Origin: Squalus acanthias
Lineage: Eukaryota
Assembly (NCBI GenBank): GCA_030390025.1
Contig: CM059437.1
Coordinates: 68,324,001 to 68,388,000 of the forward strand
Direction of reading: 5' to 3'
Length of the DNA: 64,000 bases
Positions 26,820 to 64,000 of this stretch are shown in pieces. The position numbers were made by a program, and so were the translations under genes. The notes beneath the pieces are model-generated. The model was not told where the DNA came from. It saw only the letters and a program-made list of their open reading frames with translations, and did no database searches. Each line of letters begins with the position of its first letter. Within the stretch, counting starts at the first letter, position 1.

Positions 26820-27097
26820 TATCTTCGTGTACAGATCGGAGTTTATCGCCTGATATCCAGGATCAGAATATAGACGATACAAAGGAAACGGACAATTCCA
26901 CCTCGTCAGACAAAGAGACGCAGAATAATGAGAACGAGGAGCAGAGCACGGGCACCAAGCGGAGAGGACCCCGAACCACGATTAAAGCCAAGCAGCTAGA
27001 AACATTAAAAGCCGCCTTCGCCGCTACCCCGAAGCCCACCCGACACATACGGGAGCAACTTGCTCAGGAAACAGGCCTCAACATGCGGGTTATTCAG
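26820..27097 (+). CDS. LHX5: Lhx5 coding exon 3 (linker and homeodomain N-terminal part); missing from the supplied ORF track
   Basis: Acceptor TCTTTCAG|T; [15 protein letters not shown]...[49 protein letters not shown]; donor CAG|GTACC; 278 nt. Confidence 0.97.
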
Positions 27098-27897
27098 GTA
27101 CCACCACGTCGTTGCTTTTTCGGCCCAGAGCCACTTCATCTGTATACCGTGACCATCACTCCTAACTTTATTTATTGGGTGCTTTTTAAAAAAAAACAAT
27201 TTCTTGGAAATGAATGAAGTTATTTTGCAATATGACCTTTATTTGTTCATTCAAATATTTTCATTACATGTTTAAATAAAGGTGCAAATATTTCGAATCA
27301 ATATATTTTGTTGCAAATGTGATTTTTACAGGAGGGACACTTAATCCACAGAGTACTTGTCTTTCATTTTATCCCAGGAGGTTTATCAAGAATTCACATT
27401 AAACTTTGACTATCTAAAGGACAGTTCAGTACTGCACGGGCACCAGTGAGAGAGTGCGGGCACTCTCTGAACACATTGCCATTATGTTCAATACCCGGGC
27501 TACTTTCGTGCACGTGCATAATCAATCTGATGCTTTGTCTTTACCCACAACATTTACACTTAATGCTTTTTAAGATCCTTCGTGACGCGATCGATTTCCT
27601 CCTAACGTCAATCTTTCAGGCGCGTCAGAATGATGTTATTACCATCAAATTGTTAACTTTTTTTCAGTTTTAAAAAAAAGAATTGAACTTTTTTTAGGGT
27701 TTGGCGTTTAACGTGAAATCGTTGTTTGCAGCATCATTTTCTTCGCACAAAGGAAAGGTATTGGTTTAATCAACAGACACAGAGTTAAAGTGATTTCTGT
27801 GAACTGGCTTGCCCTACAATTCATTGCGCACATAGGTAGGTGTTAGTAAACGCACTTGCTATATTTCCCATTAAAGAACGGGCCATTGTTTTGGCAG

Positions 27898-28063
27898 GTC
27901 TGGTTTCAGAACAGAAGATCTAAAGAGAGGAGGATGAAGCAGTTGAGTGCTCTGGGTGCGCGGCGGCACGCTTTCTTTCGAAGTCCCAGGCGCATGCGTC
28001 CTCTGGGAGGGCGCCTGGACGAATCGGAAATGATGGGCTCTGCTCCCTACAATTACTATGGAG
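27898..28063 (+). CDS. LHX5: Lhx5 coding exon 4 (homeodomain helix 3)
   Basis: Acceptor TTGGCAG|G; [45 protein letters not shown], where [12 protein letters not shown] is Lhx5-type rather than Lhx1-type; donor G|GTACT; 166 nt. Confidence 0.97.
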
Positions 28064-30764
28064 GTACTTTCACAACACTCAACTTCCAAAAGAGTTTGGC
28101 TGCTTTTAAAGCGGCAGTGTATGGACGGGGTCTTTTATATCCCCAGTACTGTAATATCACTGTTTTCCTCTCACTTCTCGTTTATGTCATTGGGATGGCA
28201 GAGAAGGATGCGAAATGTGTAATCTTTCGGCGTTAAATCAGCCACTATATACCGCTCTTTTTTTGCAATCAGAGCTTAAATCATAAAGCACATTGGACAG
28301 GTCCCTTTGTAATTCGGCTGCAAAGGAGGCTCCTGCTTTACATCTATTATTTTATCAGGTGATTCACATTTCGGAATATAGGGCTGTCTCGGGATTTTAT
28401 TTCGCGCGTTCAACCGCACTAATTCGGAAAAGGCAACATCGTTTTAACGCTTTTGTTACAAAATGTAATAGTTTTCGAGCTTTAAAATAATCCAGATACA
28501 TCACTTAGGGAAAGGACAGTTCGGATATGCGTTTGTCACTTTGCATTGCGTGAATCAATTGTTTGTGTAATGACCACCTCCCTTCACAAGAAAGCATTTT
28601 TTAAATCCCCTACAATTATCTCGATGTTTCACTGGAACGTTTATCCAATGCGTTCACTTTTGCGAATTGTCACGACTGCTCCAGATATAAGCCAAGAGTT
28701 CATTTGATAACCGCCTAGTTTACGTTCTACACGTTCGTACGATCCGAGTGGTCTAAGGTGCTCCGGTTGCTATGACTTTCTCACTCGTTTTGTGGCATCT
28801 GCACGGGTATTGAGTGAATGATCGCAGCCTGTTGAGCTCTTTAATCCCCCCCTGTAAGAGATTCCGCTCCGGCGCTGGCCAAGTTGCGCCCGATAAAGCA
28901 ATGCATTGTGATGAAGCTGTCTTTTTGAAGAGAAGCCTAGCCCATTCAGCGTGCACTTTCTCTTGTGTTTCCGCGAACAAAGCTACAGCTGCAGTCTTTT
29001 GTCGGATATTCACCCAGGATTTGTTCCAATTACCTCGAACTCTTCGAGCATATGGAGGGTCACTTGCAGAGCGCCGCGACTCTGCTCTTCGCCGTTTGCT
29101 GCAGCCTTCTGCTTCCAAATTTAAAACAGCACCTTCACTAAATTAACGCATTTCACATTTTTTGGCGAAGTAAATATAATAATTTTATTCTAAATATATC
29201 TTCCTTAAGCACCCACGATAAGAAGTTCCCAAATTTACCTTAGCGCTGTAAAGTACAATACTATTAATATGAGTTAAATCTCGACTGCAGTAGCGCTAAG
29301 AGGTTCCAATGCTATGCTCAATCGTCTAACATAGCTGTACTTTATCAATCCAAATTGAATACCAGTATAGTGAATTATATATTACAATTCGTCTCCTATT
29401 GCTGAATGGTATAAGTGTTAAGAATGCTTTAGGTAGGATGTATTACGTATGTTAATATGAAATCTCATATTACTGCACGCAATACCTAATACCCAATAGT
29501 AGGTATAGATATGAATGGCTTTTTTTAGTTACATTTAGTTAGCAGGAACATTATTGACACTTCTATAAAGTACAAAACCTTACTAGGAGCAGGCACTATT
29601 ATTTCTATTAATTTGGTTATAAATTAGCTGCAATTTTGTGGAATACCAAAAAGAACAACACAGAACCAGCATCAACAGGTTTCAATATTAATTTTTCTGT
29701 TCCATTCATTGAACGCGTTTATATACATTTGGAATCCATACTTTACACGTTCACGTACAAACATTCGATTTTATAGGTATATAGATAGTGATCTCACATT
29801 TTACTGAGGACTAACACTTTGCTTAAATTAATGGAGTTTTTATTGCAGGCATAATGGAATGAGTCATATAACCAGGAAGTATTCCATTGACTGCTGGCGT
29901 TGGCGTTTACCAATAATAGCAATTGCTCCTTCTAAAATTATGCATACAAATACTGTTTGTTATTTACTCCAGTGTTTCTTTAACCAGCCTTAAGAACCAA
30001 AGTTTAATATGTAACGGGGAAGTCAATTGATTTACGTTACTATAAGGTCACTCCCATTGGTTAACAGTAATAATTATCAAGTGATGAACAGTAAATCACA
30101 AATCATGTTGGCTCTGACTGTGTGGGGATAGGGGATGGAAAGCGAAGAGTAAAATTCTAACCATGGTCATCATACTCAGCTGATTATAAAATCCGAAAGA
30201 TACAAATTTTGCCTTTTTTCAATGAATACTATAGCGTGTCATCCACGAATTGTTTGTGTACTGGGCTTCACTTGGGTGACCCTGGATTTTATATGTCGGC
30301 CAAAAATGAATGTTGGAAATGAAAGCCGGTATCAAAGTCCTGCTATCAAAAAAAGTCAGCGCCATCCTCCCGAGCTTCACTTGTTAGTGATAGCATGAAC
30401 ATCACACTCCTGAGTGTGCACTTAGTAAGATTTACTTGTCGTTATGATGAATGAGGAGCAACAAGTCCTCACTACACAACTAAATCACCCATTTTATTTT
30501 AACTTCTGGTAATATTTTAAACTGAATTTACTTTTTTCTTTCATTACATTTTAATAGGTAATTATATTACATTTCTGTGCATTATATTTTTTTGATCCAA
30601 AAGTTACATGATTGGTGGTGTGGTAAGGAATTCTCCTGGAATATAAGCTGAAATTGTTCCTTTCTTTGTCTGAAGAATCGACAGAAATTATTATGCTGCA
30701 TGAATTAAATTGGAATTTAATTGCAAAGGTAGACACTTTTCTCTTGTTTTTTTATCCTATGTAG

Positions 30765-31150
30765 ATTATCAAGGAGACTACTACGGCCCAACTGCAAATT
30801 ATGACTTTTTCCCGCACGGTCCACCGTCCTCTCAAGCACATTCGCCGGCAGATTCCGGCTATATGCAGTCCTCAGGACCTGGAGGAACCTCACTCGGAGT
30901 ACTTGAACCTCCCCTTTCCGGCCACCATCCTCCCACTATCGGTGGCAGCGAAAACCAAAGGTATACGGACATGATTTCCCACCCTGACACCCCGAGCCCT
31001 GAGCCAGGCATGACCGGACCGCTGCACCCGATCCCGGGCGAAGTGTTTAGCGGGGGACCCAGCCCGCCCTTCTCGATGTCCAGCAACAGTGGCTACAGCG
31101 GCCCGCTTTCACATCCAAGTCAGGAGATGAACGAGACCGCGGTCTGGTAA
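30765..31150 (+). CDS. LHX5: Lhx5 coding exon 5 (C-terminus and stop)
   Basis: Polypyrimidine tract then GTAG|A; DYQGDYYGP...[15 protein letters not shown]...[12 protein letters not shown]...EMNETAVW*. The five exons total 1224 nt, giving 407 aa plus stop. Confidence 0.97.
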
Positions 31151-37820: not shown

Positions 37821-39735
37821 CCTTCCTTTGTAAAGTGCTGCAAGAGATCTGATAACGAAGTCTCGGTCCAACATACGTTTATCAAATTGTGCTGCTTGGG
37901 TGGTTTGAGATTTAATGATCAAAAATAATGAACAGTTTCCCCGGGAAACTGGACGAGCTTGTTCTATCTGGCCGTGTCCTGTGCAATAATTTCACCATTA
38001 GAGAAAACGCTAGTGCCTTTTTCTTATTTCAGCAACCTCAGCCTGCAGTTATACTGACCACCCACTCACTCCCCCCTTTGCAAAGCGTTTCGGTGTGCTG
38101 TGTGGAAGTGCCAGTATAACACGGGAGCCTGGCCCGACTGCTGAAATGCAGTAAGCCAAAGTGCGAGGCCCTCCAGGAAGCCAGCTAACACCACTTAGAT
38201 TTGATACCGGTGGAGTATAATATCAATCCAGTGTGAAGCACGGGTTCAAAAGTGCCCGGGGATCCATTAAAACATTCCTGGGCATTATATAAACAGCAAC
38301 GATTCTTTCTAATATAATCTCCTAACACAAACATAACCAGAGGGAAGCAGAGTTCTGCCTTTGTATCCGCTTGCGCAGAGTTCGCTCTGGTAGAGTGCAA
38401 GCCACGCCCCAAAGTATAACTTCAGTCTTGTCAGCGGCACTCTGTAGCTGCCCCCGGGCTTCACAGTGGGTTATACAATATTCAGTGCAAATTCAAACCT
38501 GGAGGAGTCTCTCACCGCTTGGCTTTGTACCCCTCAGAAGTCAGATTCGGATGGGAGTTCGCAGTTATACGTCCACTTTTGCATCAAGCCCACATATAAA
38601 TCACTGTACTCATACAAACGTGGCAGTGGAAGTGGAGCCGCCGAGTTTATGTCGGCCCTGTTCTGGTTTTGAGGTTAGAATGCAACCTTAAATCAGCACA
38701 ACATGGGGAGTTGTTGATCAGTTTTAACGCATGTTTTTCTTTTAAAAGTGCTAACTTGTATAACAATGTGCACTGAATTTTCAGCTATGTTAATATGAAA
38801 TGTGCCGTATACGCAACTGTGTCAGGTTACAATACTCCACAAACTAAAGCTAATAAATGTTCAAGTAACTGGCTAAACTGGAGGAAACTGACCAAGCTAA
38901 TCTTGTAGTAATGAAAATGTTGCAAACCTTAATTTTCCCTGCACGTCATTGTCTTACTGTATAACAGGTGTGTTAAACCATGTGCGTGTTTCCTGACCGG
39001 GTTCCCATAAGTTTTGCAAAAATGTTGATTAGAAATTAAGCTGCTGTCTGTAAAAGAGAGAATGCGGCCTGCAGGTTGGACAATTATGTGAGGTATAAAC
39101 GCACCGGGGTGCTCTTTAAAAGACGATCAATGTAGAAATGTCAGTCAGTTTATCAGATATCCATTAAGATCTATTCCCATTAAGGTTTTATTTATTTAGA
39201 GTCTGGTAATGCGAGATAAACAGAGGTGGTCCTAGATATTGGATCGCGCTGTGCCCATTTTACAGGGCCCGAGGGACCAATATGGCAGGTGGCATATGCA
39301 CTCATTCCACGTTGGTCGAGTGGCCGCCCACCATATTCGATCAGGCGCCCCCATAAGCTTCCAGAGCGCACGCCAGAACTATTCAAAACGTTCATTATAA
39401 TATTTAAATAAGGGTCCTATGCTTGTTGTAGAACCCTTTTGTGAAATTGGTTCGCCCCAGTGCCTGAATTGCCATGTGATAAACTCGCTCAGCAAATCAT
39501 GGCAATAACAGGTAGCAAGGACCCCACAGCAGAGCTATTTAAGGAGCTCATTCAGAGTTGTTGCTGGTTTGTCCTTTTAAGCAGCTGATTAACATCTGGG
39601 CGTTTTTTTGTTGTTGCCTATTTTCTGCATTACAACTGAATTGTAACTTCTGCTCACAACCTTTTTCTGGTGTTGGACTGCTATTGTCTGCCTTCAAAAC
39701 AGTTGGTCTGGTAAGTCTGCCTTTGGGGCTGGAGG

Positions 39736-40791
39736 ATGGGGGTGGGGGTGGGTCAGGAGAGAGCAGGAGCAGCTGGGAGAAGAGGAAGGAGGAGGGCACT
39801 GCACAAGAGACCATGCCTACAGAGGATCTTCAGGGAGCATTTCTCAAACCTCAACTGCACAGAGAAGCAACATGTCGAGCGCCTTCACTTCACCAATGTG
39901 GCTAAGACTGAACTATGTCACCTGTTGCAACCACAACTGGAGCCTCAAACCAGGGCATGGACAGCATTGCCTGTGGCTGTCAAGGTTACCCTGAACCTTG
40001 TCTTTTATGCAACTGGCTCCTTCCAGGCTGCAGCAGGTGACATTACTAACATCTCATGGTTTGCTGTAACCGGGAGGTCACCAAGCCTCTCTATGCCAAG
40101 AGGAACACACACTTCACTTACCCAATGGACAGAGTGAAAGCAGGAGGAACGAGCACTAGGCTTTGCTGGCATTGTAGGCTTCCCAGGGGCGCTAAGGTTC
40201 AATAGACTGCACTCACATTACCTTGTGTGCTTTGCATCACTATCCTGGCATCTTTCTCAATAGAAAGGAATTCCACTCCCTTAATGTCCAGCTTGTCTGA
40301 GACCACAGGCAGCTTGGATCTGTGTCTGTTTTTCTGGCAGCAATCATGATTCATTCATTCTGTGCCAGTCCTCTGTGCCACCTTTATTCCAAACAGACCA
40401 TCAGGCCACAAGCTGGCTACTGGGTGACAAGGGATATCCCCTTCAGACATGGCTCATGACTCCTGTCCGGAACTTGGTCACAGCCACAGAGGTGGCATAA
40501 AACAAGAACCATGCTTCCACCAGAAATATGATCGAGCAGACCATCTGCATGCTCAAGCAATGCTTCTGCTGCCTGAACCATTTGGGAGGAGATTTGCAGT
40601 ACAGCCCTTACTGTGTATCCAGATTTGTGGTTGTCTGCTGCATAAATTTTCCATAATGGGACACCAGTCCTTATCACCACCTGTGCAGCAAAAAGTGCAG
40701 GAGGATGAGGAGGAAGAGCAACATTAACCACTAGTGCCCCCTAGCTGCCAGAGCTCTTGGAGAGCAATTCATCCAAAAGGACATCACGTGA
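39736..40791 (+). pseudogene. Harbinger (HARBI1-like, DDE_Tnp_4) transposase pseudogene
   Basis: Motifs in order: [87 protein letters not shown], an acidic tract, then LAARALGEQFIQKDIT*. Contains frameshifts and stops. Confidence 0.92.
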
Positions 40792-40974
40792 ACCATCCCT
40801 CCCATCGTCACTACACCAACAGTCCTGCCTACCACCATCTGATTGACTTCCTTCAATCCAGCCTTATGGGACTTGCCCACACTTCACTAAAAATATTAAC
40901 ACCAACACCAAATCCAGAAAAAAAATCCAACAACTGAATGCCATCTGTGTATAGTATTTAACAGGAATAAGTAA

Positions 40975-42230
40975 GACTCACCTTTGTGAAACCCCTTAGT
41001 GCCTGTCTTGTGAGCTTATTTACCTATCTTTGGTGCTCCTACAAAGTGTTTCCCCAGTGACTACAGCTTGGGAGATGGAGTGCTGCTGAACTCCTATTGA
41101 GGACACTTCAGATGGCTGTTGTAGGTGACCTCAAGCAGCTCTGAGCCTTGAGGGCCCGGCTGCAGACTGCAGTATCTTGGTGTGGGCAGGGGCAGTCTGG
41201 CGCAGCTCGCTGTATGGCACTGATAAGGGTGCTGGTGGAGTGGATGGTAGGGAGCAGACATGCTACCATCCTGAGAGAGGACAGCAGGTGCATCTTCCAT
41301 GGAGCCAAGGCCACTCTCCTGGGACTGCGCCTCAGCACTCGCAGGGCTCTGTGCAAGAACAGAAAACAGGAGTGATGTGACACTCTGGAAGCCCCTGTCA
41401 ACATGGGCCCCCAGGGCCAAGATGGTAGCCATCTGACCTTCCATAGCAGCAGTGTGAGACGCCATCATGGTGGCCGCCACTGTCATGCTAATGAAGCTAA
41501 GCACTCACTCCATGTTGGACAAAATGGTCTTCATGCTCTGCGTAAAGCCCCAACACAAGTTGGAGCTGGACTCCACTATGCTCTGAGCCATTGCATGCAA
41601 GCTTGCTGCCAGGCTGCCCAATGTACCTAACATTTCTTGATGTATCCCCATCAGCTTTCTTCAGTAGCCTGGGCCCTCGAAGTCAGCATCTGAGTCCTCC
41701 GGCAAGCTGAGACCTGTGGCGTCCTATCGCCCTGCCCTAGCTCATGCATACTTGTGCCCATTGATTTACCATGTGAAGACCCTTCCTCGAAGCTATGCTC
41801 TAAAATATGCATGGTGCCAGTTACTTGCTTGGGTCGGATCGAGTGACACTGTATCTTCAGGGAAGCTGGTCACCTCTTCATGAAGTGGCACAGGGGTGTT
41901 GATATTTTTAGCATCTGAAATGAAAGAGAGGGACAAGGGTTAGTTTTTAGTCTGAAGGGAGAGCAGAGGGAGATAAATGGCTGGTGAAAGCAGCTGCAGT
42001 TTGTCATGGAGAGTGTGTATGATGTGATAGAAGTAAAAGGGAAAAAAGAGGATAAGGTGTAAAGTAATACTGTGCAATGTCTCCTCCACCATCACCACTC
42101 GCCACGCCATGACTCTTCCCCCTGCTCGTGATGGCCAGCACATCATCTTCCAGAGGGGAGAGGGTGTGCAGACAGGCTCTGCCTCCTCTGGTCACTTCCT
42201 CCTGCCTCATGTTGTGCGCAACCTTGTAAG
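40975..42230 (-). pseudogene. Harbinger Myb/SANT-like gene remnant (exons 2-3)
   Basis: KVAHNMRQEEVTRGGRACLHTLSPLEDDVLAI matches the exon-2 motif of the other copies. VDRGFQSVT and PAVLSQDGS match VERGLQGLT and PAVLSQDDS in ORF 57390-58316. Confidence 0.8.
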
Positions 42231-43321
42231 AAAGAAGGGAGTCTTTTAGTGAAAGCCCTGTGAGGTGTTTTAAGAATGTGCCTGTCACAGTCAAATAGTT
42301 TATATGTTGTGTGGAAGTTGAGGTGTGGGGAAGCGAGGGTTGCAAAAGTGGTGAGAGTAGGAGGTGCAGAGAGTGTGAGTAAGAGGAGAAGGAGGTGGAG
42401 TGAAGTGATGTTCTCAGTGATATCACAGAGGAAAGTAACCCAACATAAGCGTTAAGATTTTAATTTGCTCAATTTATTTTCTTTACAACTTTTTAAACAG
42501 GACCCAAGTAAATGTTTGAACAATACTCCATATCACTTGCTAATGTCTCCTTTTTCTAATATTCATACACCTATACATTGTATTTCCTATCTCACAGTAG
42601 CTTTAAGGACAACATAATATGAATGCTTAACAAATAGAGATATGTTGTTGTTTACTCTTGTTAACTAAAGGGAAGCTCTTTGGTGCTGGATATTAGCTAC
42701 AATAAACTTCGAACAGTTTTGTGATATCTGTGATTTGCCTGCTGATAGTCAGTCAAGTTTCTCCAAGTATATCCAATAGCTATCATGCTCAAATCTGTGA
42801 GACATCTGTCTCTTGCAGCATCCTATTGTTATGATACCCCCTATACAAAGAAGAACAAAAACTGTGCCATAGTTTAAAAGGAGGGTCATCGTCAAGGCCA
42901 CTGATTTGCATTTTTCATGAAAAATGTACAGAATCGCAGAATACAAGACCCAAAATACTTCTAAATGCTTGGGAAAACCACATTAAAAAAACAGAATTTA
43001 AACTTATTCAGATACCATAAAGCAATGAGCCTAATTTTAAATAGACATAACCTAAATACCAGTAAAAACTCCACAATCCCAGATAATAAAAATGAAATTT
43101 GATGTATTCAGTCATTGTAAACCAGTGCCCCTGGGCACCACCAATGCCCTTTAAAAAGAATAATGAACATCCTTTTTATTTCTTTAATTTTTCTGCATTA
43201 TTGTTTAGTGAGTGTTAACACCTGGACTGGAGGATTGGTTTGGAGAAGTGACTGAACTCGCCAACATTGAATTCACCCCCATACATATATAGTCAAGCAT
43301 TAATTCAGTACTATGTCACTG

Positions 43322-44420: not shown

Positions 44421-46150
44421 CTTTGCTAGCTATTTGTATGTTGGGTGGCTCAGCTCACTTGTACAGGTACAGCCCAGTGCTATGTTTCTCTAGTACTTGG
44501 CTTGTGCGAACCTTCCCAGCCATTGGTGGAGGGGGTGGGGGGGGGAGCATTATAGTGCTAAGAAACAAAGTTACAAAATGTAATATTAAAACAACTATGG
44601 AGGCATAGCTTGTACATGTACAGTCCTTTTTCTGGTGCTTTGGCATTCACCATGCAATATAAATGGGGCAGCTTTGATGGCACCATGAAGCTATAGCAAT
44701 ACTGCAGCACCACATTTCACAACATAAAAAGTTACTTTTACACTGCTGTTTATTTAGGGCAAGTTCCTGGTAACCAGCATTCATATGTAAGCACTTCTAA
44801 CTCCAGCACCCATATCCCAACAGCAGACGTGCAGACCCACAATAAACTAGGTCATAGGAGTTTGTTACCTAGCTAAGATAACTAAATTTAGTATTTTAAA
44901 TGTAGGAAGCTAACTCACAGAGGACGATCTCCTGGAATTCAACCAAAACAACTACCAGTATAAAGTTTATTTTTTATTGAGTTTAGTGGGATGCAAGGAC
45001 CACTAGTTACTGAAGTACAGGTTTCCACAGCTGACAGAAATCCCAAAGTAAAATCCTTCAATTGGGATACATTATCACAGCACACATTTAGAGCGTAGAA
45101 ATCAGAGGTTTTATTGCATTAAAAAAACAAATGACTGGATATGATGGTTGTATTTTGGCACTGAATTGATAGTATAAACAGAGAATTGGATAACATTTGA
45201 CATTCATTAAATATATATACATTATAGCTTACACATGTGTAACATTGATGCTTTCCAATGTCATCCCAAAAGAGGATATTCCCCTTGGATAATGGACATG
45301 AAGAGGTGACGTTGGCAGAAAAACTAAAGAATCCAGTATATGTTCACCCATTCCTCTTTTCTGTAAGTGAACATCTTGTACTCTATAATTAGGTTTTCAG
45401 GATTTTGATGTTTTTTGAGGTTTGGGTATTATTTGAGTGATATTTCACTTTCATCAAATTCGGTGTTTTTTCAATGTAAAAATTGGGTTTAAGAAAGTTT
45501 CACTCATAATCATTCTATTGATGAACTTTTTTTTAGTAAAACAGTAAGAGAGTAAAAGGGTAAAACAGTAGCTCTATCTACATCTTATTTAAATGAGGCA
45601 TTTTTCACAAACTGAGCTTGTAATAAATCATTTCAGTGTTTCCTTGGACATTCTTGCTCTCTCTTTCTGACCTGCAATGATTTTCATCTCCGAGATCAAC
45701 TTTTCAACATTGGCACTTGACAACGACAAGGCCAAGATAGCAAGTCTGATAATTCAGGCCACTAGTAATGCTTTCCTCACCAGAACTTGAAGGCCATTGT
45801 TTGCGGGGATGGGCTCAATCAGCAAACTATATACATATCATGGCAGAGGCATTAATGTCATGAAAAATAAACATGTGGGCCGCGATTTTATCATTGGCGG
45901 CGGGTTGGGTGCGGGTCAGGTGGTCGGTGGGTTCCGGTCCCGTCGCCACTTTCAGCCGGTCAGAAATTGCAATTTTGCCTTAATTGGCCTATTGAATCCC
46001 TATGTGCGCGCTACCCGGCCCAATTAGTGGTTTCGGGTCTGCTGCGCGCCTCTGCTGACGTCTGTCAGCCAGCTGCATGTAAGGGGCCCATGCAGCCTTG
46101 TTTCATTCTCTCATTATTTGATGGTGGATTTCGTGTTGCCGACTGCTCCC

Positions 46151-48131
46151 ATGACTGCTGAAAGAGCCAAGGCCTCTCCCCATTTTGACGATGACTCCCT
46201 CCATGCTCTTGTGGCGGGAGTGAGAGGGCGCAAGGAGGTATTATTCCCATCCTCCAGACGGAGGAAGCCTCCTCAGCAAAGCAAAGCAGCTTGGCTGCAA
46301 ATTGCTGAGGAGGTGAGCTCCAGATCGTTGTGTGCTCGCTCCTGGGTCCAGTGCAGAAAAAGGTTCAGTGACCTGGTACGCTCAGGAAAAATGAGTGTAA
46401 CATCACACTCACCCTCAATCTGCTCCCCATCTCCTCTCATCACCAGCACTCTGCATTGTCAACCTACTCCTGCACATCCCACTTTACCCTTACATCCCTT
46501 GCACCCTTAACCATCCCTCTCTCTCTATGTACACAATCACTTTACTATTCGACTATGCTGCCCTCACACTCGCTATCACTGTTATGCAATGCCAACAACT
46601 AACAACGCACAGGGAGGGCCCTTGGTATTGGCACCTCACTCCATCTTTGTCTCCTTCTAAGCATCTATGCTATGGCTTCTCTACACTCACTCCACCATTC
46701 TCACTCAAACTCCACTTGTGTCCCTCATTGCAGGAAAAGAGAGCCCACAATAAGAGGGAGAGGGCTAGGACAGGAGGAGGGCCACCTTCCATTTCCCATA
46801 TGACCAATGCTGAGGAGGCGGCCCTGGAAATAATCGGAGGTGATGAGGATCTGGAAGTGGGGGACGGTCAGACAAGCGCAGCAGAGCAAGCTGGTGACAG
46901 AATAGATTTGCATCTCTCTCATTTACATTGCATATATGGCATCTGATGCTCATACAGATTGACTTATGATCATCTGCACAATTCGATGTGCATGCTACGT
47001 TAATATCACATGCCTAACTCATGCCTTTACTCCCCCACAGGACCAACGAGAGCCCCCCCTCCCCACTGTCCAGGAGGAAGAGCCTGAGCTTGCAGACTCC
47101 TCAGATGAAGCAGCAACCTCTGAGGGCGCAGCATCAGCAGAATTAAGTGCACCCAGCACCAGCGCAGATACACACACCTCGGTGGGACCTTCGCGAGATA
47201 GAGTAGTGTTGTCACCTGGTGTATCACAGCTCACAAATGAGCATCAGCAGATAGTGGAGACAGGGACAGCAGTGGAGATTCCTCATCGGAGGACGCAGGG
47301 TGATACCAGCTCTGCTCAGCTGCATGTGGACCCTGTGCCTCTGGGGCCATCCAGAAAGAGAGCGGTGCTGGAACTCCAGGAACAAGTGCAAGAGTCTCTG
47401 GCAGGTTTTGCATCCAGGGTTACTGCGAGTGTGGAGAGGATGGAGGAGTCCATGTCTAACATGAGCAGTGCCTTTGTGGAGGCAATGGCGCATGAACGCA
47501 CCACCACGGATAGGAAGGCAACCTCCGTGGAAAGGATGGCTACCTCCATGGAAAGATGGCTATGGTCAGGGAGGAGATAAGTCACCAGAGTCAGGAAAAC
47601 ATGGTGAATGTTCAGAATAGATTGACATCTCTGGAGGAGCAATGGGCAGCTATTGAGCCGATAAACCAGAGCTTCATGGAAGTCCTTTTGAGAAGGACTG
47701 CCAGTGCAGATATGGGTCGTCATGGCCCCCCTGATGTGCAGCAAGGTGCTTTCCAGCCACTTGTTAGCACTGAAGTGGGGCTGACCCATGAGAGGGATGT
47801 TGGTGGCAGGTAACAAGGAAGTGTGGGCTCCTTTCCAAGCGCTCACACTCCCATGCCACTGCGTAGCCCTTGGTTAGAGCTCCACCAGAGTTCTCACCCA
47901 ACTGAGATGGGCGTCTCAGCCCCTGAACAGCTGCAGGAGGAGCAGACTGTTGCCGAGCCCTCACAGGCTCGCAAACCCAGAGGACGCCCACCAAAGGTGT
48001 TGAAGCAGGAGCAGCATGAAAGTGAGCAAGGTGCCTCCACATCTGCTGAAGCCACAGGGGAAGCACAGCGTAGAGGCATGCGTAAGTGGAAGATAAAGCA
48101 CAAGGGTAGTCACTTGGGTGTTCTGTTCTGA
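46151..48131 (+). pseudogene. Three-exon Myb/SANT-like (NAIF1/MSANTD-like) Harbinger DNA-binding gene, disrupted
   Basis: Exon 1 (46151-46390) is MTAERAKASPHFDDDSLHALV..AWLQIAEEVSS..RSWVQCRKRFSDL. Exon 2 (46734-46893) is EKRAHNKRERARTGGGPP. Exon 3 starts at 47041. The first donor reads ATGAGT instead of GTGAGT, and exon 3 has frameshifts. Confidence 0.85.
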
Positions 48132-48810
48132 TGTCTTTTGTTGTGTTTAATATTTGGCATTGTCATCCTTTTGTGCATGTATTAAACAAAAGTGATGGCA
48201 AACAGTTGAAATTCTGGCCTATATGATCTGGGAAATGGAAGTTCCACATTGAGGGCTCAGGGCGACTTGCATTTGTAATGATGGTGGTGAGAGTGATAGG
48301 AACCCACAGGTTCTTGTACATTGTGTATGGTGTGATAAGAAGGTGCCAGCCACATGTGTTTGATTCATCTACCTAAGCGAATCTGGCAAAGATTAGTGCA
48401 TCCCTTGCATCATGGGCAGCTGCTCTTCCTCCGAATCTGAGGACCAGGATGAGAGGGTATAAATGGTTCCCATTCTGCTGGTAGATATGTCAGTTGAGGA
48501 ATAGAAGTTATAAGCACTCAGTCAATGTGGGGAGAGGGTTTTCTCAGGAGGTCACAGTGGAGATGGATCTCAGCTTAAACACTTACAAGATCAGTAGACC
48601 TGCAAAAAGTTTTCCAAGACCTGAAAAAAGAAAGTTCTGTCATCTGTAAGTGAGCCTTGTTGAGAGGTCCGTTTTTCTGCTGGACCTGCAGCTGTCAAGA
48701 AGGCAGCCACTTGGTGAACCCGGTACAATCAGCTGGCGTGGTTTGGGAACGGCGTGGAACATGCAGAAAATGTGCAAATATCGAAAACCACTGTTAAAAT
48801 AGGATTATCC

Positions 48811-48880
48811 AGGCAGTTAACAAGCTGTTAAGGCAGTTAACAAGCTGTTAAGGCAGTTAGCAAGCTGTTAACTGCCTTAA
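48811..48880. repeat. 20-bp tandem repeat (3 copies) ending in a palindrome
   Basis: AGGCAGTTAACAAGCTGTTA x3 (third copy has one mismatch), then ACTGCCTTAA. Confidence 0.9.
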
Positions 48881-49599
48881 GGGCCTCTCCCACCGCTTGG
48901 TGACGGGACCAATCGGGACTCCCAGAGCCGGCATTTGGCAAAGTGGCGTGGAGGCGGGACCGGAGCCCGCCATCAATCAAAGTGATTTTACCCTTTGACC
49001 CGCCTCCAAACCCACCCTCTCAGTGCCAATAAAATCGCAGCCGTGGTCTTTAGAGCTGAAGAGAATGCACTGTTTCTCTGTGGGTCAATGACTAGTACTG
49101 AATACCAGAGCAATGCTTTATCCACTTCAAAAGGCATTGTAGGTGTCATATTTCATGACAGTGATGCTTGTCATTTGTCATGCTTGGCGTCCAAAAGAAC
49201 CCTAAAGCTAGTCCCAGCACAAACACAGAAAGCTCTTTCCCTCAAGTAGAATTCTAGCATCATCCCAACTATATTGAATACCTCTGGCCTTTTTGTTATT
49301 TCCATGACAGAAGACATATTCTCACTTAGAAATTGCAATATAAAATAAATCACGTTTCTCTTCACTTCACTGTCACCATGGTTACATAAACCTTCACATT
49401 TCTTTCCAGTTGCTTCTTCACTAGACAAAATGTACGTGAAGGAGTGCCACATTGCAAGCAACAGGTCAACTGCTGCAATAACTGAATGTAGTTGTTTTTA
49501 TAACACAGTTATGTTGACTCTTGGCTTAATTCTCCTTTGATGGTAAACTGTAAAATATTTTTGTTTCAGTCAATGTGTATACTTAAATAAAGTATCTAC

Positions 49600-54562: not shown

Positions 54563-55890
54563 TTACATAGGATTACATAGGATATATGGCACAGAAACAG
54601 GCCATTCAGCCCAACCAGTCCATGCCGGCGTTTATGCTCCACTTGAGCCTCCTCCTGTCTTTCCTCATCTAACTCTATTAGCATAACCCTCTATTCCCTT
54701 CTCCCTCATATGCTTATCTAACCGCCCCTTAACTGGGTCTATACTATTCGCTTCAACCACTCCCTGTGGTAGCGAGTTCTACATTCTCACCACTCTCTGA
54801 GTAAAGAAGTTCCTTCTGAATTCCCTATTTGATTTCTTGGTGACTATCTTATATTGATGGCCTCTAGTTTTGCTCTTCCCCACAAGTGGAAACACTCTCT
54901 CTGTATCTACTCTATCAAAACCTTTCATGATTTTAAAGACCTCTATTAGGTCACCTCTCAGCATTCTCTTTTCAGGAGAAAAGAGGCCCAGCCTGTTCAT
55001 CCTTTCCTGATAGGTATACCCTCGCATTTCTGGTATCATCCTTGTAAATCTTCTCTGCACCCTCTCCAGTGCCTCTATATCCTTTTTATAATATGGCTAC
55101 CAGAACTGTACGCAGTACTCCAAGTGTGGTCTAACCAAGGTTTGATACAAGTTTAGCATAACTTCCCTACTTTTCAATTCTATCCCTCTAGAAATAAACG
55201 CTAGTGCTTGGTTTGTTTTTTATGGCCTATGTCGATACTTTTAGTGATTTGTGTATTTGTACTCCGAAATTCCTTTGTTCCTCTACCCCATTTAGATTCT
55301 TATTTTCCAAGTAATATGCGACCTCCCGATTTTTCTTACCAGTGTTGAATTTCATTTGCCAATTAAATGCCCATTCTGCAAGTTTATTAACGTCTTCTTG
55401 TAATTTGTTGCAGTCCTCCTCAGTATTGACTATCCCTCCCAATTTGGTGTCGTCCGCAAATTTAGAAACTTTGTTTTTGATTCCAAAGTCTAAATCGTTA
55501 ATATAAATTGTGAACAACAGTGGTCCCAGCACTGATTTTTGTGGGATCCCCCCTTTTTACCTTCTGCCACTCTGAATAGCTACCCTTTACCCCTACTCTC
55601 TGCTTTCTGCCTTGAAGCCAGCCAGCTATCCATTCTGCTACTTGTCCCCTACTCCCCATTCCCTGACCTTATTCATTCGTCTATTATGTGGTACCTTATC
55701 AAAGGCCTTTTGAAAATCTAGATAAATTACATCTACTACATTACCCTTGTCTACTCTCTCTGTTATCTCTTCAAAAAATTCAATTAGGTTGGTTAAGCAA
55801 GACTTTCCCTTTTGAAATCCATGCTGACTATTTATTATTATTATATTTTTGGTTTCTACATGTTCTCCCATTTTCTCCTTTAGTAGGGAT
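54563..55890 (-). mobile_element. 5'-truncated CR1 LINE, same subfamily as the 1-4023 host
   Basis: RT fragments SQHGFQKGKSCLTNLIEFF, YLDFQKAFDKVPH, KFADDTK and QRRFTRMIPEM. The 3' UTR and tail match 3914-4023. Confidence 0.93.
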
Positions 55891-56510
55891 GTTCCATTTC
55901 CATCATTTAGAAATCAGGAATCGCCCAGCATTCAGAGAGCTTGGAATCTGGGCCTATCCACAAAAATGTGTTCCATTTCCATCAACTATCGACATTATTC
56001 TTTTGTGATTATTAGGGAAGTTAACATTTTGATTTCTTAACTCCATGCAATATTTGGATAAGGTTACTGACAGGCGAAGCAACAAACATCAGGTTCCAAT
56101 AAGGTGTTACACCACGCTTCAGAATCCGCTTCCAGTCCATGTGTTATAACAGCTGCCTGGTTGAAGTAGTTATCCTTGCCTTGTCCTATTCTGGGACAAT
56201 AGGTGTTAGTGCAAAACACAAAGGGGGTGAAATTGAATTAAGGTCAAAAATGGGCGCAGGGAGCGCAAAGCGCGATCTGCCCGCACCCGTTCAAAGTTGG
56301 GCAGGCAGCACGCAAAATTCGTGCTGCTGCTCATTATAATGATTGGAGCGCTTATCTCAGCGCTAAATGTGCTGCTATTTTGCTTAGTGCTCAACAGGGG
56401 AGCCAATATCAAGTGCAGTCTACTGACCAATAAAATTTTGCCTAGGCTCTCTGCACTACTTAAAGCGGAGGTGCTTTGTTGTAGAAGTACCTCATTGTCA
56501 CTCTGAAGCC

Positions 56511-58470
56511 ATGGCTCAACAGGGAAGAGAGAGGGCATGGAGGTTCTCAGATGCGGCACTGGTGGCCTTGGTCCTGGGGTGTACAGAAGACATCAGGTCC
56601 TCTACCCACAAGTGTGTGGGGGCGGGGGGCAGGAGGCCTTACAGGCAGCACGCCAGAAGGAAATAGCACAAGCCGTCACTGCCACGTGTGTTGCCCCCAG
56701 AACCTGGATCCAGTGCCGCAAGAAGTTTAATGACCTCACATGAGAGTTCGAGGTATATCCCATATCCCACCAACTGCACCACAAGCCTCACACACTGCTC
56801 AATGTACCACACCCCCATCACTCACCTACCAAAAATCTCTAGCAATCACCACTCATACCTCACAATCATAGCGTCACCTCACACTCACACACTTACCACT
56901 GCTGTAAGACTCGCACCCACATTTCACACCTTGCACACACTGCCAGCTATTCAACCATGCCAGGCACATCACCCAATCACATTGCACCACCACTCACTGA
57001 CACACTTCCCTTTCTCTTGTAGGCAAAGGTGGTGCACAAATGCCGTGAGCAGCAGCAGACGGGCGGAGGGGAAGCCCGACTTCAGAACCTCACTGAGCTG
57101 GAGGAGACATGCTGGAGATTATTGGAGGGGCCGTCACTGAGGCCATGGAGAGCAGCGAGGTTGAAAGCATTGCTGATGACGGTATGCTCATACCTAATCC
57201 TTCTTCTCACATCCCACTTCCCCCTCATCCCACAATCTCTTCTCACTTACAAGCTGCTAATGGTGTAAGCATGCACATCTTGCTTTCCCGCTGCCCCCCC
57301 CCCCCCCCCACCCACCATAACCCGACCCTTGTGCATTTCTCCTTTCAGATACCCAAGAACTGCCACCAGCACAGCCTGTCCCTGGCATAATGGAGGAGGT
57401 GAGTGAAGAAGAAGAGGCACCATCACACGATCTGACACTCCCAGGCAGCAACTCAGAAAATGGCACTGCGCGAGCTTTAAAGGGCAGTATAGAGGCGGGA
57501 TCTGCACATGGTGAGTCACCGGGCATGAGTGGGCTGCAGCCAGGCCAGAGGGAAAGGGTAGCTCGGGTGCCAGCTTCCCGGAGGGCGTGTTTGCACTCGA
57601 GTTCTGTTGCACAGGACTTAGATGATGACTTCGATGGGGCGGTCTTCAGAAGAAGGGTGATGGGCATGCACACAGAAATGCTTGGTGCAATGGCAAGCCT
57701 GCCAAAGAGCCTCTTCTCATTGTCTTGGAGCATGGAGGAGTCCAGCTCCAACATTGCACGGGGCTTTGCATTGAGCTTGGAGCCCATGATTTCCAGGATG
57801 GAAATGATGGGCGACTCCATTAGGACATTTGTGGACCTAACCATCATGCTGGGTGTGATGGACAAAGTCACAGCTTTCATTGCAACACAAACGGAAGCGA
57901 CCCAATGTCTGAGTGCTGCAGAGGAAGCTCAGACTGCTCTCATGCAATCTCAGCTTGCTGCCACGCAAGCTCAGACTGCTCTCATGCAGGCTCAGGTTGC
58001 TGCCAGGCAAGCTCAGACTGCTGCCACCGTGGCTGGGTTTACGAGTGTGGAAAGGGGCTTGCAGGGTCTCACAGCAGTCCAGCAATCTGTGCTCCAACAG
58101 GCTAGGAATGCTGAGGCACCGCCCTGGAGGAGTGGCAGTGGCTCCGTGGAGCAAGAACCTGCTGTCCTCTCTCAGGATGACAGCATTCGTACTCCCACCC
58201 CTACCACTCCGCCAGTGCCCTTGCTGCTGCCTGTCAGCCAGCCTGCCCAGACTGCTGACGCCTATGCCGAGATGGTGCAGGCTATAGCCGGGCCTTCTAG
58301 GCCCAGAGCTGCTTGAGGTCATCCTGCAAGGCCATCTGCAGTCTCGCCCACTGAATGCCAGCAGCCTTCCACCAGCCATGCTGCAGCCACTGGGGGAGCA
58401 CTTCCTAGGAATCACCAGAGTAGGAAAATGTACATGAAAGACAGACACTAAGGGAATGCACAAGGGTGAT
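56511..58470 (+). pseudogene. Harbinger Myb/SANT-like gene, full extent but frameshifted
   Basis: MAQQGRERAWRFSDAALVALV..RTWIQCRKKFNDLT; exon 2 AKVVHKCREQQQTGGGEARLQNLTELEE; long exon 3 ORF 57390-58316. Confidence 0.82.
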
Positions 58471-58734
58471 TACTTGACTTTGTTCTTTTGACTTGCATTT
58501 GATAAATTTATAAATTATGTTTGGAATGTGTGTTTTGTGGTGGTTCTCATTTCAGCTTTGTGCCCAGGAGGATGCTGTGATGTTCCATGACAGAGGAATG
58601 GTAAGGTGGGGAAGTGGTGAGCAACGGGGATCTGGGGTTTCATTCACTGGAACCGAAGTCTGATGAGACACTCATGGACAGCCCGTCCAGAACGGGGATC
58701 TGCTGACTACCTCCTCCCTTCCTCCTCCTCCTCC

Positions 58735-59695
58735 TGGTGTCTGTGAGTGTCAGAGGCTGTGCCGGTGTGTCTTCTTCTTTTCCTCTATCACTCTCCTCCT
58801 CTATCACTTCAGGGACAGGCTGGGCTGCTGACAGTTCTTGGGTATCTGAAAGGAGAAATGCACAAGGGTCGGGTTGTGGTGAGGAGAGAGTGGGGGGGGG
58901 AAGCAGGATATCGATGCATACACCATCAGCAGCTTGTAAGTGAGAAGAGATTGTGGGATGAGGGGGAAGTGGGATGTGAGACGAAGGATTAGGTATGAGC
59001 ATACCATCATCATCAGCAATGCTTTCCACACCCTGCTCGCCACGGACTCTGAGACTGCCCCTCCAAATTATTTCGAGAACTGCTTCCTCCAGCTGCGTGA
59101 GGTTCTGAATTCTGGCTTGCCCTCCACCCATCTGCTGGTGCTCCCGGCGGTTGTGCACCACTTTTGCCTGCAAGAGAAAGGGAAGTGTGTCAGTGAGTGT
59201 GGTGCAATGTGTTTAGGTGATGTGCCTGGCATGGTTGAATAGCTGGCAGTGGTGCAAGGTATGAGATGTGGGTGTGAGTCTTGCAGCAGGGATAAATGTG
59301 CATGGGTGAAGCAAAGCTATGATTGTGAGGTATGAGTGGTGATTGCTAGAGATTTTTGGTAGGTGAGTGATGGGAGTGTGGTGCATTGAGCAGTGTGTGA
59401 GGCTTGTGGTGCAGATAGTGGGATATGGCATTTGACATTCACTGACCTTGACCACTCGTGTGAGGTCATTGAACTTTTTGCGGCACTGGATCCAAGTCCT
59501 GGGGAAAACACATATCACAGTGATGGCTTGAGCAATCTCCTCTCACTGCCTTCTTGTGTACAGCCTTGAAGGCCTCCTGCCCGCCGCCCCCCCCCCCCCC
59601 ATCCCTTGCGGGTAGAGGACCTCACGGCGTCTTTGTACCCCCAGGAACAAGGCCTCGGAAAATCTTCTTGCCCTTTCCCTTGGCTGTTGGGCCAT
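58735..59695 (-). pseudogene. Second, 3'-truncated Myb/SANT gene copy in the inverted arm
   Basis: MAQQPRERARRFSEAL..RTWIQCRKKFNDLTRVVK|gtcagt; exon 2 AKVVHNRREHQQMGGGQARIQNLTQLEE; exon 3 starts DTQELSAAQPVPEV. Confidence 0.82.
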
Positions 59696-60820
59696 GGCTC
59701 TGTTCAGAATGACAATGAGGTGATTCTGCAACAAACCACCTCCCCTTTGAGTAGTGCAGAGAGCCTAGGCCAAGCTTTATTGGCCAGTAGACTGCACCCG
59801 ATATTGGTCCCCCCTGTTGAGCGCTAAGCCAAACAGCAGCGCGTTGAGCGCTGAGATCAGCGTTGTAATCATTATAATGAACAAGCAGCACGAATTTTGC
59901 ACTACTTTGAACAGGCGTAGGCACATAGTGCTGCGCGATGCCCCCGCCCATTTTTGGGCCATATCCAATTTCTAGGCCAATGTTCCTTATCGCAGTACAC
60001 ATTCTATGTTGTAATTTTTTATGGTTATATTTTCCTTTAACTTAGCATAAATCAGATGTATGGTATTTGTTTGTTTTAATTTTTGTTAATACCCTTTTAT
60101 TAATATAGGGCTATAATTCTTCCATCAATTTTTGAAAAGCAAAACGGTTGAATTTTTTTCTATCAATTTGAGAAATGTGTTCAATACTTTTTAATAATAT
60201 TATTCTACCTATTAGACAACATGTACAGTCTACCCTACCTATATCACTTTGCTTTAATTAGTAGTACCTTATTTGTTGCACATCACTTTGAGAGTGGCAT
60301 TTCAATCTGTTTATTTATCTCTAACTCATTGCAATTCATACTGGATGCAGTTTATCAGAGGTGTTTGACCATTGGTCCTCTGGAACTTTAGACCAAGGAA
60401 CCTGTATACCAGTTTAGACTTCTAAACTAGTTATTTATGCATGAGGTAGTTAGTTCCTCTGATCCTACTTGTTCCAAGTGATATTTCCCATGAACATAAC
60501 AAAGGTTACCTCTACATATGTCCGATTAAGGTTCAGGAGTTGATTTGTCATTCACTGACTAGCGTTTGATAGGTTCTTCATTTACTATATATAAATTACA
60601 AATGATAAATTGTGGTCCTGAGTTTGTTAAAAGCTAACACCTTCAAGAGCAACTGTTGACTGCCCTTTGTTTTATATAGGTTTTGCTATAATTGAATATA
60701 TCAGTGGATTATCACAATAAACAAAATACATAGGTGAGTAGACTATACAGTTGTTCAGTGCTGGTATTTGATATTAAAGCAGTGGGTGATTATCACCAGA
60801 TTATGAAAACATAATTTTAT

Positions 60821-61270
60821 AGGGTACAGTGGTGTAGTGGTTATGTTACTGGACTAGTAATCTAGAGATCTGGACTAATAATCTAATGAACATGAGGTCA
60901 AATCCCATCATGGCAGTTTGTGAATTTGAATTCAGTTTAAGAAAAATCTAGAAATAAAAAGTTGATATCTGTAAAAGTGACCATGAAGCTGTCAGATTGT
61001 CATCAAAACCCAACTGGTTCACTAATGTCTGTTAAAGGAAGGAAACCTTCTATCTTTACTTGATCTGGCCTATATGTGACTCCAATCCCACACAAACATG
61101 ATTGGCTCTTAACTGCCCTCTAAAGTGACCTAGCCAGCCACTCAGCCACTCAGCTGTGTCAAACCAGTCGTGGTTCAAGAAGAAGGTCCACCTTTCCAGG
61201 GAAGCTAGGGTTGGGCAATGAATGGCAACCTTGCCAGCGATGCCCACACCCTGAGAATGAATAATAAAAA
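60821..61270 (+). mobile_element. tRNA-derived SINE of an elasmobranch-type family, with LINE-derived 3' tail
   Basis: A-box-like GTGGTGTAGTGG, B-box-like GGTCAAATCCC, and a 3' end CCTTGCCAGCGATGCCCACACCCTGAGAATGAAT followed by an A-rich tail. Confidence 0.75.
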
Positions 61271-64000
61271 ATGTCTCATATTCTGACATCAAGACCTGCA
61301 AATTAAAAGACTATTTGATTATTAAAATGCAAGAATATTCAACATGTTGGATTTATTACACATATCATTTATTTTGGCTGGTGGAATGCTATATAATTTC
61401 ACCTATACTGAGCTGATTATAATGAAGTGATACTTCTTCATGGTAATTCATTATAATGAAAGCTCAAAAGGGTTAGTTAGTTCACCTTTCTAGCTCCCAC
61501 CCATTACAGATCATCATTACTCTAGATTATGAAACAGCATCCGATCTCTCTGTCATCTCCTGCTAGCCAAAGCCTTTGATTTCTAAAATTGTGGAGGGTC
61601 TGTTGGTACATTGTTCTCTTGTGCAATTAGTTGAATGGCCAAGTTCACTCTGCAGATTCACCCGCATGTGAGTTTTTTCGCAGAAAATTATGAGCAGCTA
61701 TTGGAATGAAATGTCACGTTGAAGGTTTACTTTGCCAAGAAATAGGTGTGGGAAATGCGGGGTGGGGGCTTGAGGAACCATCAGACTAGTTCCCCCAGCC
61801 TCCCCTCCACTTCCAGGATTTCCCAATAGAAGTGGCACTGAATACTGAATGTGCCCACCTATATTTGGACAGGCGCATTCAAATTAAATGTTAATGACGT
61901 CACTCAACTTATTTTCTATCAGTACACCTTGGCAATACCAAGTTTCAGGAGTGGGAAGAGGGTGTTACATCTTAACCGGCCCACAAGCCAAGTCCAATCG
62001 TTCATAGAGCGATCAATTACACGTAGCACAAGTGCCAAATTCAAACTTCACAAAATTTTAAAGGGTTTCTTCCGCTCCTCCCAGAGCTGCAGAAGCAGGC
62101 GTCCATGGTCCGCTGCTGCAGCGGGCTAAGGACTGCAGCAGCGATATTCCTTACCTCCCTCCTCTTTGGCCACCAGAGGCAGGCTCCCTGGCCCAATGCA
62201 AACACTGCTGGGAGCTTTCCAAATCTGATAATGAGCCTGATCCTAGAAGATTGCCAGGGCCAGGGCAGACTGACGTGGGCGCAAAGTTTTCTGCAACACT
62301 GATCCAGTAGGATTCCCATTGGTTTAGAATCTAGGTATATAGGTGGCCGTGAGATCAGTTACATTCAAAAGAGGGAACCATTCAGGGGGATAGGGGCAAA
62401 TAAACCTGACTGGCAAATAAAATGTTAGTAAAATAAGAGTTGAGAAGACAATTGGTATTGAATAGGATTCATGTCTTTTGGATGTCACATCAGAAAAGTA
62501 AATTCCACAATATTAATTCAGCTGGAAGGCGCTCAGAATAAAGTCAGAAACTTGCTTCTTGTTGAACATGTGTAGAGTTCTAGAGGTAAACAGAGGCGTT
62601 ACAAATTCAGGTCTGCTGTAAATGCCTTCTTAGGTTCAGTGGCATAGTTGCTGTCAGAGGATCTTGCTATAATGAACATTGACTCACACTGCCTTATATC
62701 TAGTTGCACAATAGCATAACCCAGGGATGTAACAATAGCACCCCCTTGTGATCTGGACTGAATATTTGTGCTTTTTTGCATGAATACTTCTTCGAGTCCA
62801 AGGCTTGACATAAATCATTAAGCTACTTTATTTCATAGCAAGTGAACATACAGAGCAACAATTATGATCAAATTCACTTAGTTTCATCAGTACAACTTAT
62901 CTTCATGTAATGATCCAAAATAAAGAACCCTTCCCCACATCAGTGGGTTGCCTTATTTGACTTTACCAAAATGTCTTCTAACTGTCACTCCAGAAATTAT
63001 GACTTCCCGAGCCTGCCTACAGCTTTCACAGCTCTATGTTTAAAAGGCTGACTGCACCCAAAGCCTTTCTGTTTCGGAAAGCTTGTCTGCCCGTGCCCCC
63101 ATGTCTTTTTATATCCCCCTCACAGACAGACTGAGATCAAAGGACTTTCCAACGCAGTTAACCACCTTTAGTTTAGATGTCTTTTTTTTAAACGTGGGAG
63201 TACCCTTTGCTTAAAAAATCATTAAAAGGAACTCAATTGTTCAAATCCTTTCTGTGTGAAAGTGGTCAAAAAATCCTAAAATGTGACAAGTGGGAAGAGG
63301 AGAAGCCATTGAAGTAAAGGTTTAGCGGTAAAATGCAAGAAAATAAAATTAAGTTATTTATTTAAGATACCAATTAAATTGTGATAAAACAGTTAATTAT
63401 TGGAATATGTTAGGATATTTTGGGCAGCAATTCAGAAACTGGCTGCTATACAAAAAATAAAGAGTTGAATGGACTGACTGGTAGTGAAAGGAACAGACAA
63501 AACCTCCATCGGAAAGAGGAGAAATCTTTATTAGAAAAAGATGTATGAGATAAATAATGTTATATAATACGTAGGAGTTGCAGTTAAGGAAAGGGTTGGA
63601 GTGCAGTGAAAAGTCAGAACAGGAATAATATGAGGATAACAGCTGCAAGGAGAGTACGTTCAGTTTCAGAGAAGCTCATTGGAAATGAATGACAAGATAA
63701 AGGAGCAACATAAAAGAGCGGAATTTGCAGCACTGAGCTAGAAATTAAAAACAATCATTCATTGTATGCTGCTCTGTTCTATGTACAGCAGTGTATGTCT
63801 GGAACAAAATCTAATATAGAATGGGAGATGAAAGGGCAGTAAGGTGGGAGGACAATGAGTGTTATGAGAAGATAATCATGCTATGCAAGAAAAGTAGAGA
63901 GGACAAGGATGTACTGTGCTATTTTAAAAATGCTGGGGAGCTGGGTGTAGCCAATACCAAGAACCTATCTTGAAAGATAGCCCAATGTGACTAGCTGGTA

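Follow-up and report, generated by a model that had tools for sequence, protein, structure and literature searches.

The terminal repeats of Harbinger transposons are 5-1042 bp long, mostly under 60 bp, with TWA targets (PMC4482050), and a survey of teleosts found recombination between Harbinger lineages to be rare (PMC9179366). In Rhodnius prolixus there are mariner lineages in which the 5' part has been replaced by the 3' part, and the authors propose that these arose by deletion between close copies through abortive gap repair (PMC4678618). Here we describe a Harbinger element with a layout of this kind, located at 56223-59978 of a 64,000-nucleotide stretch of Squalus acanthias DNA (assembly GCA_030390025.1, contig CM059437.1, positions 68,324,001 to 68,388,000; this whole stretch is called the window, and all positions are counted from its first letter). 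The structure at 56223-59978 is real and old.

Self-BLAST returned one inverted match, in which 56229-57450 pairs with 59972-58735 at 79.5% identity over 1273 columns (bit score 1023-1116). The two arms are about 1.25 kb each and their alignment extends to the termini at 56223 and 59978. Each arm contains a terminus, a subterminal region with CCAAT boxes and exons 1-2, along with two GT-AG introns and the beginning of exon 3. These data confirm the first-pass annotation, which had reported two inverted arms of about 1.2 kb and had listed a terminus, promoter region, exons 1-2, both introns and the start of exon 3 in each. The result is a 3.8-kb near-palindrome, in which two Myb/SANT ends enclose a single broken Myb gene and ~30 codons from the end of a transposase. 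A single ordinary element accounts for the left 2.5 kb, from the Myb end through the transposase tail, and the right 1.25 kb is a Myb end from a different sub-lineage. Both Myb genes are disrupted by frameshifts and stops. The features are:

56220-56222, no strand: left flanking triplet AAA, from the sequence, 2/3 match to the right triplet AAT
56223-56510, plus: left terminus (GGGGGTGAAATTG), then the Myb-side subterminal/promoter region, which has two CCAAT boxes; flank border crossed by single contigs in sequencing runs X2 and X22
56511-56752, plus: left Myb/SANT exon 1, with a frameshift and an in-frame stop
56753-57022, plus: left intron 1 (GT..AG), 91% identical to right intron 1
57023-57181, plus: left exon 2, frameshifted
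57182-57348, plus: left intron 2 (GT..AG), 91% identical to right intron 2
57349-58469, plus: left exon 3, ~320 open codons until the stop at 58314-58316, decayed after it
58470-58643, no strand: putative 3' region common to both convergent genes; AT-rich, polyadenylation-like words occur at 58501-58515 on both strands
58644-58733, minus: C-terminal ~30 codons of a Harbinger DDE transposase, from the acidic tract to the stop, identified by protein matches
58734-58736, minus: junction of right Myb exon 3 and transposase tail, spanned by a 202-nt X22 contig
58737-58845, minus: start of right Myb exon 3
58846-59004, minus: right intron 2
59005-59167, minus: right exon 2, frameshifted
59168-59446, minus: right intron 1
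59447-59695, minus: right Myb/SANT exon 1, with a 12-nt gap relative to the left arm and an in-frame stop
59696-59978, minus: right subterminal/promoter region and terminus (GGCCTAGAAATTG); flank border crossed in X2 and X22
59979-59981, no strand: right flanking triplet AAT, from the sequence

Both termini begin with GG, in agreement with the G or A that starts PIF/Harbinger terminal inverted repeats, and share GAAATTG, although four of the first seven bases differ between the right terminus and the left. The flanking triplets are not a perfect duplication. At the junction, the CAG at 58734-58736 is compatible with both sides of the switch and, judged from the left arm and distant relatives, may represent microhomology. 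Left exon 3 also contains 21-bp-period repeats at 57903-58028 that add ~28 in-frame codons (AQTA-type units) relative to the shark protein P0002 described below. There were no Rfam matches in 55500-61500.

Both arms matched P0002, a Myb-like shark protein (PF13873, E 1.5e-10). The match is 58% identical in right exon 1 (E 3.8e-19), 58% in left exon 1 (E 5.7e-12) and 57% in left exon 3 (E 1e-75), whereas the decayed exons by themselves gave sub-threshold Pfam Myb matches (E 0.03-0.05). The minus-strand tail HQEEEEEGRR*SADPRSGRAVHECLIRLRFQ* (58739-58644) aligned with the C-terminus of the DDE_Tnp_4 protein P0009 with a score of 72, which none of 500 shuffles reached (maximum 43). Two proteins found with a DDE fragment also matched this region, P0088 at 58679-58584 (E 3e-7) and P0014 at 58714-58521 (E 5e-7). 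When only the last 20 residues of the tail were compared with 160 proteins, the best score (40) was below the null maximum (45), but the longer frame and tblastn exceeded the shuffles. These matches bear out that this is a Harbinger derivative with two Myb ends and that its acidic GAG-rich stretch is a transposase C-terminus, both of which had been proposed before. By contrast, the likeness of the tail to 40741-40791 that was noted at the same time is not significant (DNA alignment score 37 against a shuffle maximum of 40). The named protein relatives are all from sharks (Heptranchias, Pristiophorus and Heterodontus; 7 of 7 and 10 of 10 in two listings).

With the 160 proteins found by a DDE fragment, no DDE core was detected between 56223 and 59978. 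Of the PIF/Harbinger parts, the Myb/SANT gene is thus present in both arms and the DDE transposase is represented by its C-terminal ~30 codons only; lacking a DDE core and with both Myb genes broken, the locus does not have the two intact open reading frames of an autonomous element. We compared the locus with six sequencing runs (X1, X2, X6, X15, X19 and X22) of five organisms, out of 24 listed. Two contigs in X6 carry the transposase tail with 1196 and 406 other letters upstream, as expected for transposase-bearing copies.

The two arms are not equally alike along their length. Arm-to-arm identity is 91% in the introns, 79-81% in the exons and 67.5% in the first 40 bases, with segment edges, here and in the codon comparison, up to 4 bases off the splice sites. 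For the codon comparison we used 90 codons in four gap-free blocks, chosen by anchors where the frame was sure. The arms differ at 14, 8 and 29 first, second and third codon positions, respectively (chi-square p 0.001). This corresponds to a synonymous divergence (dS) of 0.59, a nonsynonymous divergence (dN) of 0.14 and a dN/dS of 0.23, where choosing well-aligned blocks may lower dN somewhat. Such a choice would not, however, drive third-position differences up to 30% with introns still at 7%. We considered CpG decay as the source of the exon divergence and rejected it because the pattern persists without CpG-prone sites (10/82, 6/83 and 25/84 at the three positions, p 1e-4). Judged from this codon pattern, the exons of the arms diverged under purifying (protein) selection while coding, and from this we conclude that two Myb sub-lineages were joined. 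The earlier proposal that a template switch or recombination overwrote the transposase therefore stands in part. Recombination between two subfamilies, which it offered as an option, is supported by the dS and dN values, but a template switch that copied the Myb side of the element itself does not fit the codon divergence.

To gain insight into the age of the structure we turn to the other runs. In X2, one contig (55861-56288) crosses the left border with 1 difference and another (59784-60800) crosses the right border with 6 differences. The X2 borders thus differ by 0.2-0.6%, the listed contigs at the locus are 99.4-100% identical, and only about half of the sampled words are present in this run. 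X22 comes from a second organism, in which the flanks are 4.5-6% diverged. Here, contig 56200-56579 crosses the left border (depth 8.5, 6.8% differences), contig 59879-60785 crosses the right border (depth 10.9, 6.0% differences) and contig 58638-58839 spans the junction without gaps (depth 10.7, 7 differences or 3.5%), so that both borders and the junction are at single-copy depth. From its sequence, the X22 junction contig is best read as an orthologue. Since the chimera is common to this second organism, it is older than the split of the two organisms, which bears out the earlier suggestion that the event is old. Two other X22 contigs stop at 56200-56203 with 30 and 43 unaligned letters, which suggests a small insertion or deletion in X22, 20 bases outside the left terminus.

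Of 407 non-CpG intron sites, 29 (7.1%) differ between the arms. This equals the level at second codon positions (6/83) and is far below that at third positions (25/84, p 8e-8). Given that the X22 orthologue already shows 3.5-6.8% divergence, decay after insertion likely accounts for much of the 7%, and the two sub-lineages therefore seem to have had nearly the same introns. Compared with exon 1-2 bins, intron bins also drew 17-33 times more family depth in three runs and 81-549 times more in X15, which is a rough sign that the intron similarity is family-wide. This points to intron-biased exchange between sub-lineages or to constraint on the introns. Such likeness of introns at a synonymous divergence of ~40% may be worth more than the chimera itself. 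Two further features of the family were seen in these comparisons. At 59182-59224 many high-depth family contigs go back 33-37 bases, which we read as a minisatellite or a tandem duplication that other copies have at the 3' end of intron 1. At 57752-58157 a joint that skips ~404 exon 3 bases occurs in all 4 runs of the same comparison (1-5 contigs each), and we take it as a recurrent deletion variant in the family.

The family from which the element derives is very large. Its summed contig depth is up to 2.3 million (X1), compared with ~17-50 for single listed contigs; summed contig depth is not copy number, and 10^4-10^5 copies is a rough guess. A 40-base GAG-rich tract at the junction was skipped in the contig comparison. 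For this reason the spanning depth at the junction is unreadable and the bin values there are those of four unskipped bases. Towards the tail, each run has 87-106 contigs with the common letter at 58675, and every one of them ends at the edge of the tract (X1, X6, X19 and X22). On the Myb side, 25 (X1), 11 (X6) and 37 (X19) contigs with the common letter at 58755 end at the tract, and only X22 has one contig with this letter that passes through it. At the tract itself no joints were dropped, and of the 15 joints listed out of 122 none lies across it. The depth at 58755 limits siblings of the chimera to ~15 (X6), 35 (X22), 95 (X19) and 218 (X1) copy-equivalents, or tens to ~200 overall, where the limits use rough single-copy depths that were estimated for three of the four runs. 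No sibling junction was seen in the six runs; this is a weak test that misses true junctions, because X2 has both borders but no junction-spanning contig. A protein in the frame of the chimeric junction was found in none of 179 candidates, which is also a weak result since repeats are rarely annotated. A 27-base family motif gave no matches in metagenome and viral contigs.

The very high copy number of the parent family, and the fact that none of the listed contigs spans the whole element, could be taken to mean that the assembly fused two repeat copies, an alternative that the first-pass annotation had raised. The borders in X2 and the borders and junction in X22 refute this. An artefact is excluded because X22 is another organism, with its own diverged flanks, and we regard the probability of this explanation as negligible. 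The same annotation had raised a mobile double-Myb family as a possibility. This is not supported so far, given that the sole junction-spanning contig is single-copy and best read as an orthologue. A large family of this kind is unlikely and a small one is possible. In the latter case the like-ended chimera would use transposase in trans, and its copies would number between a few and some tens. Its two ends are both intact transposon termini, the like-ended mariner lineage Rpmar49 amplified to 13 copies (PMC4678618), Myb-only Harbingers are mobile in C. inopinata (PMC13668399) and the contig test can miss junctions, as in X2. Against this are the single-copy depth and orthologue-level identity of the only spanning contig, the limit of ~15-218 copy-equivalents from the rough single-copy depths, the lack of the chimeric tail in all 179 candidate proteins and the lack of a perfect target duplication. 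On balance we consider a small mobile family improbable. It is likewise improbable that the locus belongs to a small ancient non-autonomous family in which two Myb ends of different sub-lineages move as a unit, with a transpososome that accepts both. The setting for this would be a swarm of shark Harbingers with sub-lineages that have distinct Myb exons and termini but near-identical introns. It is probable that the chimera is a one-off rearrangement, taking the one-off readings together.

The locus is a decayed chimera of two Harbinger copies and, among the one-off readings, we think there is about an even chance that it was formed once by deletion between neighbouring insertions that faced in opposite directions. 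A long inverted repeat would have resulted from two neighbouring copies inserted with their Myb ends outward. If one copy then broke in its GAG-rich transposase tract, repair via a few matching bases might have joined the break to Myb exon 3 of the other, with loss of both transposase halves and the spacer. The product would have two transposon ends and two broken Myb genes, and there is no sign that it multiplied. We favour this route because it needs only a high density of elements, which the window shows: three Harbinger relics lie within 21 kb, providing the opportunity for neighbouring insertions. The same route has been proposed for the mariners Rpmar49 and Rpmar17 (PMC4678618). Several points weigh against it. 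The presence of both borders in X2 without a junction-spanning contig and the dropping of 41 and 14 loose ends at the tract weaken the sibling test, and the from_end column was read as a maximum, a meaning that we infer. No empty or pre-deletion site was seen; X6 hardly covers the flanks at the 90% level and X15 has a single contig there, on the right, so the lost spacer is a hypothetical part of this scheme. The AAA and AAT triplets fit a single duplication that has decayed (at 5-10% divergence the probability is 0.14-0.24), but they fit two unrelated targets about equally well and are uninformative. At 14 of 16 bases the right terminus is the same as the transposase-end terminus of the 39229 element, and the original right end could therefore have been kept.

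This last point leads to the main rival of neighbour deletion, which is that everything happened at a single site. A canonical element would have lost its transposase half by gap repair that copied an unlinked Myb end, with another sub-lineage as the template and priming at the similar terminal repeats, or else such a chimera arose elsewhere and was inserted at this site once. The 2/3 match of the triplets, the likeness of the right terminus to the transposase end of a related element, the lack of Harbinger remains in either flank and the near-identical introns in diverged arms, which suggest frequent exchange between sub-lineages, are all in line with this. However, the triplet match is uninformative, terminal bases may vary by sub-lineage and the normal Myb-end terminus is unreadable in the contig data. 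We therefore hold a single-site origin only tentatively. A nested insertion was rejected because neither flank contains Harbinger sequence and a second deletion would be needed. Much less likely than either origin is a fold-back self-duplication, in which the element's own left arm was copied over the transposase half and then drifted. The 91% identity of the introns would fit this, as would a rare letter (~5% of the depth) that both arms have at 58859, although this is one of nine such sites. Arms from one copy are expected to diverge evenly, which they do not, and neutral drift cannot make third positions differ by 30% when second positions and introns differ by 7%. In 40 of the 150 rows there are nine sites where at least 86% of the family depth is unlike the right arm; the left arm carries the family letter at seven of these, another letter at one and the letter of the right arm at one. 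Self-copying is largely refuted by these data and we regard it as very unlikely.

It had also been proposed that convergent promoters in the two arms could produce long double-stranded RNA. This is wrong as stated. From their orientation, the inward promoters would each make Myb-sense RNA ending near the AT-rich signals at 58501-58515. Since both RNAs are Myb-sense and non-complementary, long double-stranded RNA needs read-through into the far arm. Complementarity between the predicted RNAs would be limited to the short 3' region that they share, as it is in any canonical copy. The arms contain 8 perfect runs of at least 21 nt, the longest being 59 nt, and a read-through transcript could fold back on itself. 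A family of this size is likely to offer many other sources of double-stranded RNA.

The window contains other elements of interest. At 39229-42400 there is a canonical two-gene Harbinger relic, with a decayed DDE transposase on the plus strand and a Myb gene on the minus strand, of which the Myb 5' end and terminus are missing beyond ~42400. A Harbinger of another family is found at 45878-49042. Its target duplication, GTG/GTG, is perfect, and it has a Myb gene (PF13873, E 5e-9), a short transposase-side remnant without a detectable DDE core and a 19-bp unit repeated ~3 times near 48820-48880; from its sequence this looks like a Myb-only deletion derivative. A LIM-homeobox gene at 23800-31150 (Pfam LIM E 3e-17, homeodomain E 8e-13), which we take to be of the Lhx1/5 type, has its last coding exon ~25 kb upstream of the chimera. 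Two 3' ends of long interspersed nuclear elements at 2651-4016 and 54563-55898 are 87% alike, in opposite orientation and 50 kb apart; from their reverse-transcriptase-like frames they are presumably of the CR1 type.

As a single dead locus this element matters little, being a rearranged relic among very many copies. It is nevertheless a clear example of recombination between Harbinger sub-lineages and is usable as a presence/absence marker among related sharks. If siblings exist, two Myb-side ends would be sufficient for Harbinger transposition. The suggestion that the architecture may be undescribed agrees with the literature searched in one respect and not in another: no Harbinger case was found, but the like-ended layout is known in mariner (PMC4678618). 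A double-Myb Harbinger was not found in the literature searched, which consisted mostly of open papers with supplementary family tables outside its scope; a double-MADF form was not found in the accessible part of PMC13668399, nor the terms "double" or "palindrom" in that of PMC9179366.

Like canonical PIF/Harbinger elements, the element has repeats that start with G, a Myb/SANT gene and a transposase of the DDE_Tnp_4 kind (PMC4482050, PMC9179366), and its genes converge on a shared 3' region as they do in the 39.2-42.4 kb element. Unlike them, it has a second Myb end in place of the DDE core. Long terminal repeats are already on record for Harbingers (PMC4482050), whereas the recombinant nature of this locus is in contrast to the rarity of recombination in the teleost survey (PMC9179366). 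Harbinger-1M_cIno as well as Harbinger-2M_cIno of Caenorhabditis inopinata resemble it in having kept the DNA-binding gene and lost the DDE core (PMC13668399). Those elements arose by internal deletion and retain the two ends that they started with; they occur in multiple copies with TWA duplications, and their MADF gene is often intact. The element described here instead has two Myb ends, with breaks in both genes, and we saw no family of it. With Rpmar49 and Rpmar17 it shares the replacement of one half by an inverted copy of the other, which results in very long terminal repeats. Those are mariners, with 13 copies of Rpmar49 and 227 rearranged copies of Rpmar17 (PMC4678618), and here a Harbinger is seen at one locus. 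As a further difference from the two mariner lineages, the arms of this element come from two diverged sub-lineages and the half that was kept carries a spliced Myb gene.

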